The notes beneath the pieces were generated by a model. It saw nothing but the letters and a program-made list of their open reading frames with translations, had not been told where the DNA came from and made no database searches. Made by a program: the position numbers and the translations under genes. Shown one piece after another: positions 56,339 to 59,553 of a DNA stretch of 64,000 bases; position 1 is the first letter of the stretch; the number at the start of each line of letters is the position of its first letter. The DNA is from Promethearchaeota archaeon (lineage in GTDB: Archaea > Asgardarchaeota > Lokiarchaeia > Sigyniarchaeales > SOKP01), in contig JAEOTA010000088.1 of the NCBI GenBank assembly GCA_016840085.1, positions 84,517 through 148,516 on the forward strand. Reading direction: 5' to 3'.

Positions 56339-56872
56339 ATGGCTCCTGACGAAGAAAGTAATAAGGAAATGGAAGAAAAATTAGAAAAGGAAGAACCTTC
56401 TGAAGAAATCGTTGAAGAGCTTGAAGAAGAAGAAGGAGAAAGAGAATTAGATACAGAAGCAGAGCTAGATAGATTAAGGTTTAAATATAGAGGTTACACT
56501 TTAGAGGAATTAAAGAAGATGAATATGGATCAATTCATTCAGTTATTACCAGCTAGATCAAGACGTTCCTTAAAAAGAGGATTGCCTCCAAGACAAAAAA
56601 AATTGCTTGAAAGGTTAAGACGGGCATATCGAGCTAAAAAAAGAGGTAAAGATTTAATTACAAGAACACATATCCGCGATATGATAGTTTTTCCTGAAAT
56701 GTGTGGTCTTACAATTTCAATTTATAATGGAAAAGATTATATACCTGTTGAAGTTCGCCCAGAAATGATTGGTCATTATCTTGGGGAATTTTCTTTAACA
56801 AGAAGAAGAGTACAACACGGTTCACCAGGAATAGGAGCCACACGAAGTTCCAAATATGTTCCACTAAAATAA
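56339..56872 (+). CDS. rps19: 30S ribosomal protein uS19 with acidic N-terminal extension
   Basis: [49 protein letters not shown]. Confidence 0.97.
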
Positions 56873-57384: not shown

Positions 57385-57474
57385 GTAAAATTATAATAAA
57401 TTATAATAATAAAATTAAAAGAATAATAAAAAATGAATTGTATTACAAATGAAAGTATTGCATTGGTGATTTAA

Positions 57475-58309
57475 TTGCCACTAGTGAAAAATTTTATAGA
57501 ACAAGGGATTAAATTGATGCAAATAAACGAATATTTGCGATCAGAATTAGTTAGAGCAGGATTCGCTGGCGTTGATGTACAAAAGACACCGCTTGGAGTG
57601 CGTATTACCCTAAGAACCTCAAGACCAGGTTTGGTCATTGGTAATTATGAGTGTCAATTCGACAATATAGCCAAAAGGGGGAAAACGCATCCAAGAGATC
57701 ACGGACGTTCTTCAAGATCGATTTGGGCTGGAAAATTAATTTCTGTCTAAGAAGTTAAGCCTATTGCCCCAGATCGAAGTCGAAGAGGTTTCTAATCCTG
57801 ATTTAAATGCTCAGATCATGGCGGAAAGATTGGCTTACAGTTTAGATAGGGGGCGTCACTATCGTAGAGCAGGTTACTACATCCTTCGCAAGATAATGGA
57901 CTCTGGTGGTGCTCTTGGCGCTGAGATTCGAATTAGTGGAAAAGTCACTAGTCAACGTGCTAGAACCCAAATATTTAGAGCAGGCACTATGACAAAAAGT
58001 GGCTTTCCTGCCCAAGAGGGTGTAGATAAGGGTGTAGCTCAATGTATTCAAAAATCAGGCGTATTGGGTATAATTGTAAAAATTTTTCACGCTGACACAA
58101 AGATGGGAGATGAAATAAAAATTAAAGAAGAACTCTTAAATCAAGCACAAGCAGAAGCTGAAGCCAAAATAGCTAAAACAAGAGCAGAGTATGTTATTGA
58201 GGAGGAAGAAACAGTAAAAAGTGAAGAAGATAGACAACTAATAGATGAAGTAGATGAAGAAGCTATTTCCGAAATTTCATTAGCTCCCGATAAAAATAAT
58301 GATAAATAG
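57475..58309 (+). CDS. rps3: 30S ribosomal protein uS3, three predicted exons: 57475-57644, 57676-57734, 57765-58309 (774 nt, 257 aa)
   Basis: Joined product reads ...[44 protein letters not shown]..., a canonical KH GxxG and uS3 sequence; position between rpl22 and rpl29. Confidence 0.9.
57645..57675 (+). other. Putative bulge-helix-bulge micro-intron 1 in rps3 (31 nt, frameshifting)
   Basis: Central helix UGGU(57639-42)/GCCA(57670-73), bulges AA^U and AA^A, inner hairpin UAUG..UGUC/GACA.UAUA; removal restores the frame. Confidence 0.82.
57735..57764 (+). other. Putative bulge-helix-bulge micro-intron 2 in rps3 (30 nt, contains in-frame stop)
   Basis: 9-bp inner stem 57736-44/57750-58; strong exon-exon stem 57719-28/57766-76; exactly 7 nt (4+3) between stems on both strands. 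Confidence 0.78.
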
Positions 58310-59204: not shown

Positions 59205-59270
59205 TTGGGGACTCGTAGAAAGCTTGGTAGGAAAAAGGTTTCTAAACCACGGACTAGTTACGGTGTGTAT
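59205..59270 (+). pseudogene. rpl14: 5' fragment of uL14 gene, truncated after ~22 codons
   Basis: Directly follows rps17 where rpl14 is expected; basic N-terminus MGTRRKLGRKKVSKPRTSYGVY, but the expected DNSGA motif is absent in all three frames downstream. Confidence 0.6.
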
Positions 59271-59358
59271 ACTTGCTATATGATATTTGAGCATTTACTC
59301 CTATTATGCATCCCTGTGCGATGGATTTTTTCTATATCATTAAGGTTCATGCAAATAT

Positions 59359-59553
59359 TCACCCAAAGATCAGCTCTCGAACATAATTTACAGTCGATAT
59401 ACCCCCATCGCTATGCAACGTAATCCCCCACTCCTTCCATTGTCGGAATTGTTTTGCTAAAAATTCAAATGTTTCTATAAAATCATCTATCGTTGTCGCA
59501 TGGGCGGTAATCCATTTATTCCTCCATATTGTTATATATATTTCTCTTGGCAT
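59359..59553 (-). CDS. Small hypothetical protein, possibly a truncated or chimeric remnant
   Basis: 64-aa ORF preceded by gaggag-like RBS; another frame carries an unrelated-looking tail (IDCKLCSRADLW...) ending near 59276. Confidence 0.45.
   Translation of the reverse strand: MPREIYITIWRNKWITAHATTIDDFIETFEFLAKQFRQWKEWGITLHSDGGISTVNYVRELIFG

Follow-up and report, generated by a model that had tools for sequence, protein, structure and literature searches.

A very probably spliced, bulge-helix-bulge-like intron with a loose core in the uS3 gene of a Loki-type Asgard archaeon

The gene for ribosomal protein uS3 (rps3) of a Loki-type Asgard archaeon was analyzed in a stretch of 64,000 nucleotides from contig JAEOTA010000088.1 (the window, whose first letter is position 1). 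The host is placed by the names of uS3 homologues, among them Promethearchaeota and Ca. Lokiarchaeum. The gene is single copy in the assembly, lies between uL22 and uL29 in a ribosomal-protein operon, and has two interruptions, one of 31 nt at 57645 to 57675 (intron 1) and one of 30 nt at 57735 to 57764 (intron 2). Comparison of natural alleles and folding predictions lead us to conclude that intron 2 is a real and very probably spliced pre-mRNA intron resembling the bulge-helix-bulge (BHB) type, with a loose core that is specific to the site. Removing both inserts gives a uS3 of 257 amino acids that is 95 to 96% identical to the full-length uS3 of sister strains.

Intron 2 contains an in-frame TAA at 57737 to 57739, and excision of 57735 to 57764 yields GLEMPQ across the junction. 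This register had been put forward in the original prediction, made from the letters alone, and the intronless relatives bear it out: most read LEMPQ, with 77 LEM and 25 LEL among full-length homologues. When every possible 30-nt excision was scanned without reference to the motif, 57735 to 57764 was the single best register. In addition, a contig that is ∼98% identical to the exons of an intron-bearing congener, G003, lacks exactly the 30 nt, with zero sliding ambiguity; the different 5' layout of this contig, L147, suggests that it is a DNA allele rather than cDNA. The register obtained from the protein and from the empty allele is the one predicted by BHB geometry. The ENPQ and EKPQ registers were rejected, as relatives have Met at this position (Leu in one lineage) and neither suits BHB geometry.

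The predicted fold has the stems, bulges, and stop codon at the places first proposed. An outer exon-exon helix is formed by 57719 to 57728 and 57766 to 57776, with 10 pairs, one of them U-G, and one bulged C in the 3' arm. The inner intron hairpin (57736 to 57758) pairs 57736 to 57744 with 57750 to 57758 through 9 pairs, one of them U-G, around a 5-nt loop. Between the helices, the 5' strand (57729 to 57735) consists of UGGA and the bulge AA/A, and the 3' strand (57759 to 57765) consists of GCCU and the bulge AU/U, with the slashes marking predicted cuts after 57734 and 57764; the first is the cut expected from BHB geometry, the protein register, and the empty allele alike. Both helices, including the closing and distal pairs of the outer one, are predicted at probabilities of 0.93 to 1.0 and enclose a symmetric 7x7 loop, and the region folds better than shuffled sequence (z = -4.1; none of 200 shuffles equally good). 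A scan for a 30-nt insert with an inner stem of at least 9 bp, both middle pairs, and an outer stem pairing at 5 or more of 6 positions returned comparable geometry at 1 of 625,821 coding positions of this genome. An alternative helix, GGGCU/AGCCU, was discarded, being 7.6 kcal/mol worse (P about 0) and broken in variants that use a GAG codon. A group I, group II, or spliceosomal intron was likewise rejected: the 30 nt form a single hairpin with ends AU...AU, lacking a catalytic core of hundreds of nucleotides and GU-AG ends.

Further evidence comes from 15 alleles that carry an insert at this site, 14 of them with 30 nt and one with 29 nt. The 7+7-nt spacing is kept in all 15. In an ungapped alignment of the 14 variants of 30 nt, both sides have changed in 8 of the 9 inner pairs, 96% of inner cells and 93.6% of outer cells remain paired, and the covariation score is 0.494 (shuffled, 0.203; slid partners, at most 0.219), the kin among these variants being nonindependent. 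The reading frame is disrupted in every variant, either by an in-frame stop (TAA, TGA, or TAG) whose place varies or by a frameshift. The exons take part as well. The two outer arms have GC contents of 60% and 73%, versus 40% for the uS3 coding sequence, and arm pairing averages -11.9 kcal/mol in intron-bearing alleles versus -6.1 kcal/mol in 97 intronless contexts, a difference whose P value is overstated by the relatedness of the sequences. Of the 15 intron-bearing alleles, 13 contain the codon string G(G/A)G CTR GAA, against 7 of 105 intronless ones. The GC-rich exon codons had been singled out at the start, and they do accompany stronger exon pairing, to which the amino acids also contribute.

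None of the 15 variants attains four of four central pairs; ten have 3/4, and five, including this one, have 2/4. Pair 1 is U-A in nine variants and U.U in six, pair 2 covaries as G-C, G-U, or A-U, and pair 3 is G-C throughout. Pair 4, beside the 5' bulge, is A.G in 14 variants (here A57732 opposite G57759) and A-U in one (L245). A loose core is fixed at this site. As to whether a strong outer stem makes up for a weak core, the outer stem averages -13.8 kcal/mol in the 2/4 variants and -10.9 kcal/mol in the 3/4 variants, which are too few and too related for this comparison to carry weight. With its 7+7 spacing, exon helix of 10 bp, and intron helix of 9 bp, intron 2 agrees with the canonical hBHBh' motif in all but the 4/4 central Watson-Crick or G-U pairs (2/4 here, 3/4 at best in relatives); because these pairs are incomplete, we do not file it as canonical. 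It does resemble the relaxed kind known from cbf5, in that it interrupts a coding sequence and its removal restores a conserved protein.

This core was compared with other inserts, sampled without use of the motif by spliced alignment of orthologues (about 1240 alignments, the majority from congener G002) and by a reverse search of about 1090 G002 genes. Ties between registers were decided by BHB score, so the counts lean towards the motif. This genome gave 8 mRNA inserts of 29 to 31 nt (two in uS3, two in EF-2, one in cdhC, and three others), and the reverse search gave 8 of 29 to 37 nt in G002; a further match, C49, was dropped as an antisense open reading frame. Ten of these 16 inserts have 4/4 central pairs, five have 3/4, and intron 2 alone has 2/4. 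Both middle pairs are kept in all 16, and mismatches fall at end pairs only. Intron 2 thus combines two core defects that occur singly in other sampled inserts. Among the tRNA genes of this genome, the tRNA-Ser(CGA) intron has 3/4 central pairs, and the 28-nt intron at 37/38 of the tRNA-Ser(UGA) gene (G000 C83:98085-98196) has a core of C-G, U.U, U.U, and G.A, or 1/4.

The enzyme acting on such motifs is probably of the relaxed type, judging by the (alpha-beta)2 EndA of congeners. The assembly contains one EndA gene, which we assign to the structural beta subunit because the catalytic His and Lys motifs are missing. The catalytic alpha subunit occurs in 9 of 10 congeners searched; five congeners have both alpha and beta, and alpha is present in four of five intron-bearing congeners. 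The best alignment of congener alpha is to A. pernix EndA (E value of 5e-34) and runs ungapped through a loop with K-P-R, and where examined this loop matches the Crenarchaea-type CSL of A. pernix, in which K44 (Lys44) confers broad specificity (PMC3241643). Two EndA paralogues have been reported in 44 of 60 Asgard genomes (bioRxiv 10.64898/2026.10.13.758758). The relaxed endonuclease implied by the original prediction gains support from these paired paralogues with their CSL-like loop and from the 1/4 tRNA-Ser(UGA) intron. Determination of the EndA subunit type had also been proposed, and this succeeded for beta in the present genome and for alpha in congeners only. The RNA ligase RtcB is present in this genome.

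We propose that the outer helix and the inner hairpin hold the two 7-nt strands face to face in the 4+3 spacing of a BHB. The core alone would remain an open 7x7 loop and would close only on EndA, through the two middle G-C pairs, with U.U and A.G tolerated at the ends. The cuts after 57734 and 57764, behind the second base of each bulge, would then be made by an (alpha-beta)2 EndA of broad specificity that has a CSL-type loop, and RtcB would join the exons and rebuild the split Met codon. The loose core would be a tolerated trait of the site and not a switch. When G57759 is changed to U in silico, the new U pairs with the A at the start of the intron in 75% of the ensemble, lengthening the hairpin and moving the bulge, and the full BHB dominates only if the U.U is repaired as well. 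A weaker inference from this modeling is that G opposite A may be kept as a register guard, since a U at this position would pair with that A and let the register slip.

Several observations weigh against splicing of intron 2 as proposed. Its core is the weakest among the 16 mRNA inserts sampled, and on its own the RNA is predicted to leave both central G-C pairs open (P of pairing about 0.01), the closed state lying 3 kcal/mol above the open loop. A search of metagenome contigs for the spliced junction gave zero matches, and the protein cluster of this uS3 holds no full-length member with this strain's exons; its full-length cluster mates P0129 and P0131, considered as spliced products, come from sister strains and have other exon codons. 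Catalytic EndA alpha was not found in this assembly by hidden Markov model or tblastn. The genes that flank alpha in congeners (MEMO1-like and ATPase A-like) also have no match in the assembly, whose completeness is 98.8%; because these usual neighbors are missing too, the absence points to a gap, and alpha probably lies in an unassembled region. The suggested register guard is not strict, as L245 has an A-U end pair and L246 keeps the G without an A at +1.

The missing alpha gene could also be taken to favor reading the locus as a pseudogene, an assembly error, or a case of stop read-through or ribosomal bypass. We rate the chance of this as very small. The operon is intact around its single uS3 copy, and the exons are conserved. 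Four Logan assemblies, possibly from the same samples, reproduce the window with 100% identity over the insert, which excludes a one-off assembly error, and the allele is present in DNA runs SRR14699978/80/82/83 from the source sediments. The variation of the stops in type and place, or the frameshift (one variant has 29 nt), excludes a shared read-through. It is about as improbable that uS3 is made unspliced in two pieces, with an N-terminal KH part ending at the insert stop and a C-terminal part restarting at an NTG across the 3' junction. The site does separate the Pfam domains KH_2 and S3_C, all 15 variants have TTG, ATG, or GTG as junction codon, and the lineage uses TTG starts. Yet the TG is the remainder of the split Met codon, the restart codon abuts the outer helix and has no Shine-Dalgarno motif, and the fixed length, 7+7 spacing, and covariation would be left unexplained. 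Moreover, intron 1 frameshifts the KH loop, so that splicing is required regardless.

A third alternative accepts the same intron and takes its loose core for a tuned slow step that regulates uS3 output through EndA level, temperature, or binding of the open loop by the KH domain of uS3. The absence of any 4/4 variant fits this idea, as one change would suffice in most, and so do the retention of G opposite A despite a 30%-GC genome, the predicted uphill closing of the core, and the stop of the unspliced message ahead of the C-terminal domain. We nevertheless consider it unlikely, if less so than the two preceding alternatives. Only 15 of 116 alleles contain intron 2, for which a tree built from downstream exon DNA requires 11 or more changes, and near-identical strains are without it; an essential tRNA intron of this genome is even looser; and beyond the junction bases there are zero conserved elements. 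Since intron 2 is dispensable among close strains, a conserved regulatory role is argued against, and the regulatory splice envisaged in the original prediction is not supported, most relatives being without the intron. Slower splicing, the other half of that suggestion, is possible in view of the 3 kcal/mol predicted for closing the core.

The presence of intron 2 varies among close strains. In comparison with L148, from a ∼95% identical strain that has intron 1 and lacks intron 2, this allele differs at 24 of 130 positions around the site and at 14 of 431 in the rest of uS3. L148 and L145 are in turn about 99% identical except for a block of ∼330 nt with the leader and intron 1. The same allele patterns recur in independent assemblies (L149 and L146). 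These sequence contrasts suggest that intron presence changes via patch recombination, with a patch of ∼130 nt in at least one pair, while the pair of G003 and L147 looks like a clean gain or loss. On a tree of the local patch, the intron-bearing alleles did not group (11 changes, with weak support). Intron-bearing and empty alleles in near-identical strains offer a direct handle on the gain and loss of short archaeal introns.

An intron in cbf5 pre-mRNA of Crenarchaeota was reportedly described by Watanabe in 2002 and Yoshinari in 2006. In Desulfurococcales and Sulfolobales, the motifs of these introns are often relaxed and have been tied to hetero-oligomeric EndA (Yokobori 2009, PMC2738675). 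The uS3 intron is similarly short, lies within coding sequence, has a relaxed BHB-like motif and a probable link to hetero-oligomeric EndA, and is present in particular lineages. It differs in gene and phylum, in that two introns occur in one ribosomal-protein mRNA, in belonging to a set of several such inserts in each genome (about 8 in 1243 genes sampled), and in that its presence flips between close strains and not between families; its splicing is also a prediction. According to a later study, cbf5 had been the sole mRNA case until then; that study adds a BHB intron in the 5' untranslated region of HVO_1309 from Haloferax volcanii (PMC7714728). There too an mRNA is a substrate of EndA, as is predicted for uS3, but the host is a euryarchaeon and the intron lies outside coding sequence, whereas a splicing failure in uS3 would truncate an essential protein. 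Noncanonical or relaxed BHB introns in tRNAs of Asgard archaea and Thermoproteales (bioRxiv 10.64898/2026.10.13.758758; PMC11291895) share the motif, a similar size, repeated gain and loss, and probably the (alpha-beta)2 EndA background. Unlike these, the uS3 intron is in an mRNA, so that its outer helix has to be built by synonymous codons, and at 2/4 intron 2 falls below the relaxed class (3/4) of the preprint, in which mRNA is unmentioned. In the searchable literature, which covers few subscription journals, zero papers on Asgard mRNA introns were found, and BHB splicing within archaeal coding sequence is documented only for cbf5.

If intron 2 is spliced as proposed, its position in a ribosomal protein gene that is present only once would make ribosome synthesis depend on the tRNA splicing enzyme, and this in the archaea most closely related to eukaryotes. 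What that enzyme has to tolerate would be charted by the 15 natural variants, with middle pairs kept and end pairs free. Motif searches that require 3 or 4 central pairs would miss intron 2, and databases list such genes as fragments. A more sweeping proposal, which we hold only tentatively and think more likely wrong than right, is that the tRNA machinery serves Loki-type Asgard archaea for routine splicing of essential mRNAs, at motifs with as few as two central pairs, that synonymous codons are selected for the exon helix, and that versions with and without the intron pass between strains in short recombination patches; in its strongest form, the fixed A.G core would be a tuned rate-limiting step.

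The remaining parts of the uS3 gene, on the plus strand like both introns, are as follows. Exon 1 (57475 to 57644) begins with TTG at 57475, encodes the KH domain up to the GKGG loop, and is 96% identical to intronless uS3 residues 3 to 58. Intron 1 has a canonical central helix, UGGU/GCCA, and was found at 12 same-site loci in relatives and this genome. Exon 2 (57676 to 57734) has 59 nt, and its spliced translation agrees with intronless relatives. Exon 3 (57765 to 58309) encodes the C-terminal domain, appears in databases as a 181-amino-acid fragment, and ends in an acidic tail (58140 to 58309). The two introns may possibly be related, as both sites read UGGNAA and both introns end AGCC-like, with zero wider similarity. 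A third uS3 intron site occurs at codon 7 in relatives (L015, L023, L043, L187, and L243), with 30 to 33 nt and a canonical 4/4 core, and a degraded partial uS3 copy lies directly upstream of uS3 in G021.

Among inserts in other genes, EF-2 of this genome (G000 C4 minus, about 188585 and 188714 on the reversed contig) has two 30-nt canonical BHB inserts with stops, and cdhC on C4 has one BHB insert. The intronless uS3 of G002 is accompanied by mRNA inserts elsewhere in that genome (L065, L074, L076, L084, L111, L125, and L132), in genes that by sequence include a DnaG-like primase, uL11, a thioredoxin-like protein, two thiolase-like proteins, and UvrB. BHB inserts were also seen in uL14 of G021 (L033) and, at one common site, in a small membrane-protein gene of G062 and G075 (L034/L049).

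The start of uS3 (57433 to 57474) comes in two allele types, with either a direct ATG (MSP...) or an extra 38 to 40 nt with GGTGA and a TTG, GTG, or ATC start (MP...). In the window, a Shine-Dalgarno-like GGTGAT (57465 to 57470, plus strand) precedes the TTG, and several relatives share the layout of GGTGA plus TTG, GTG, or ATG; an ATG at 57433 opens a short reading frame that closes just 5' of the TTG. A third intron at the start codon was considered and rejected: the extra stretch aligns like an insertion, has no good BHB, and is taken as a leader with a Shine-Dalgarno motif and TTG. One possibility is that a former insert has decayed and now serves as the leader. The operon starts at uS19 (56339 to 56872), which has a long acidic N-terminal extension. 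After uS17, the uL14 frame (59205 to 59423) ends after ∼15 codons (MGTRRKLGRKKVSKP) and is followed by unrelated minus-strand genes; the operon is interrupted or mis-joined at this point.
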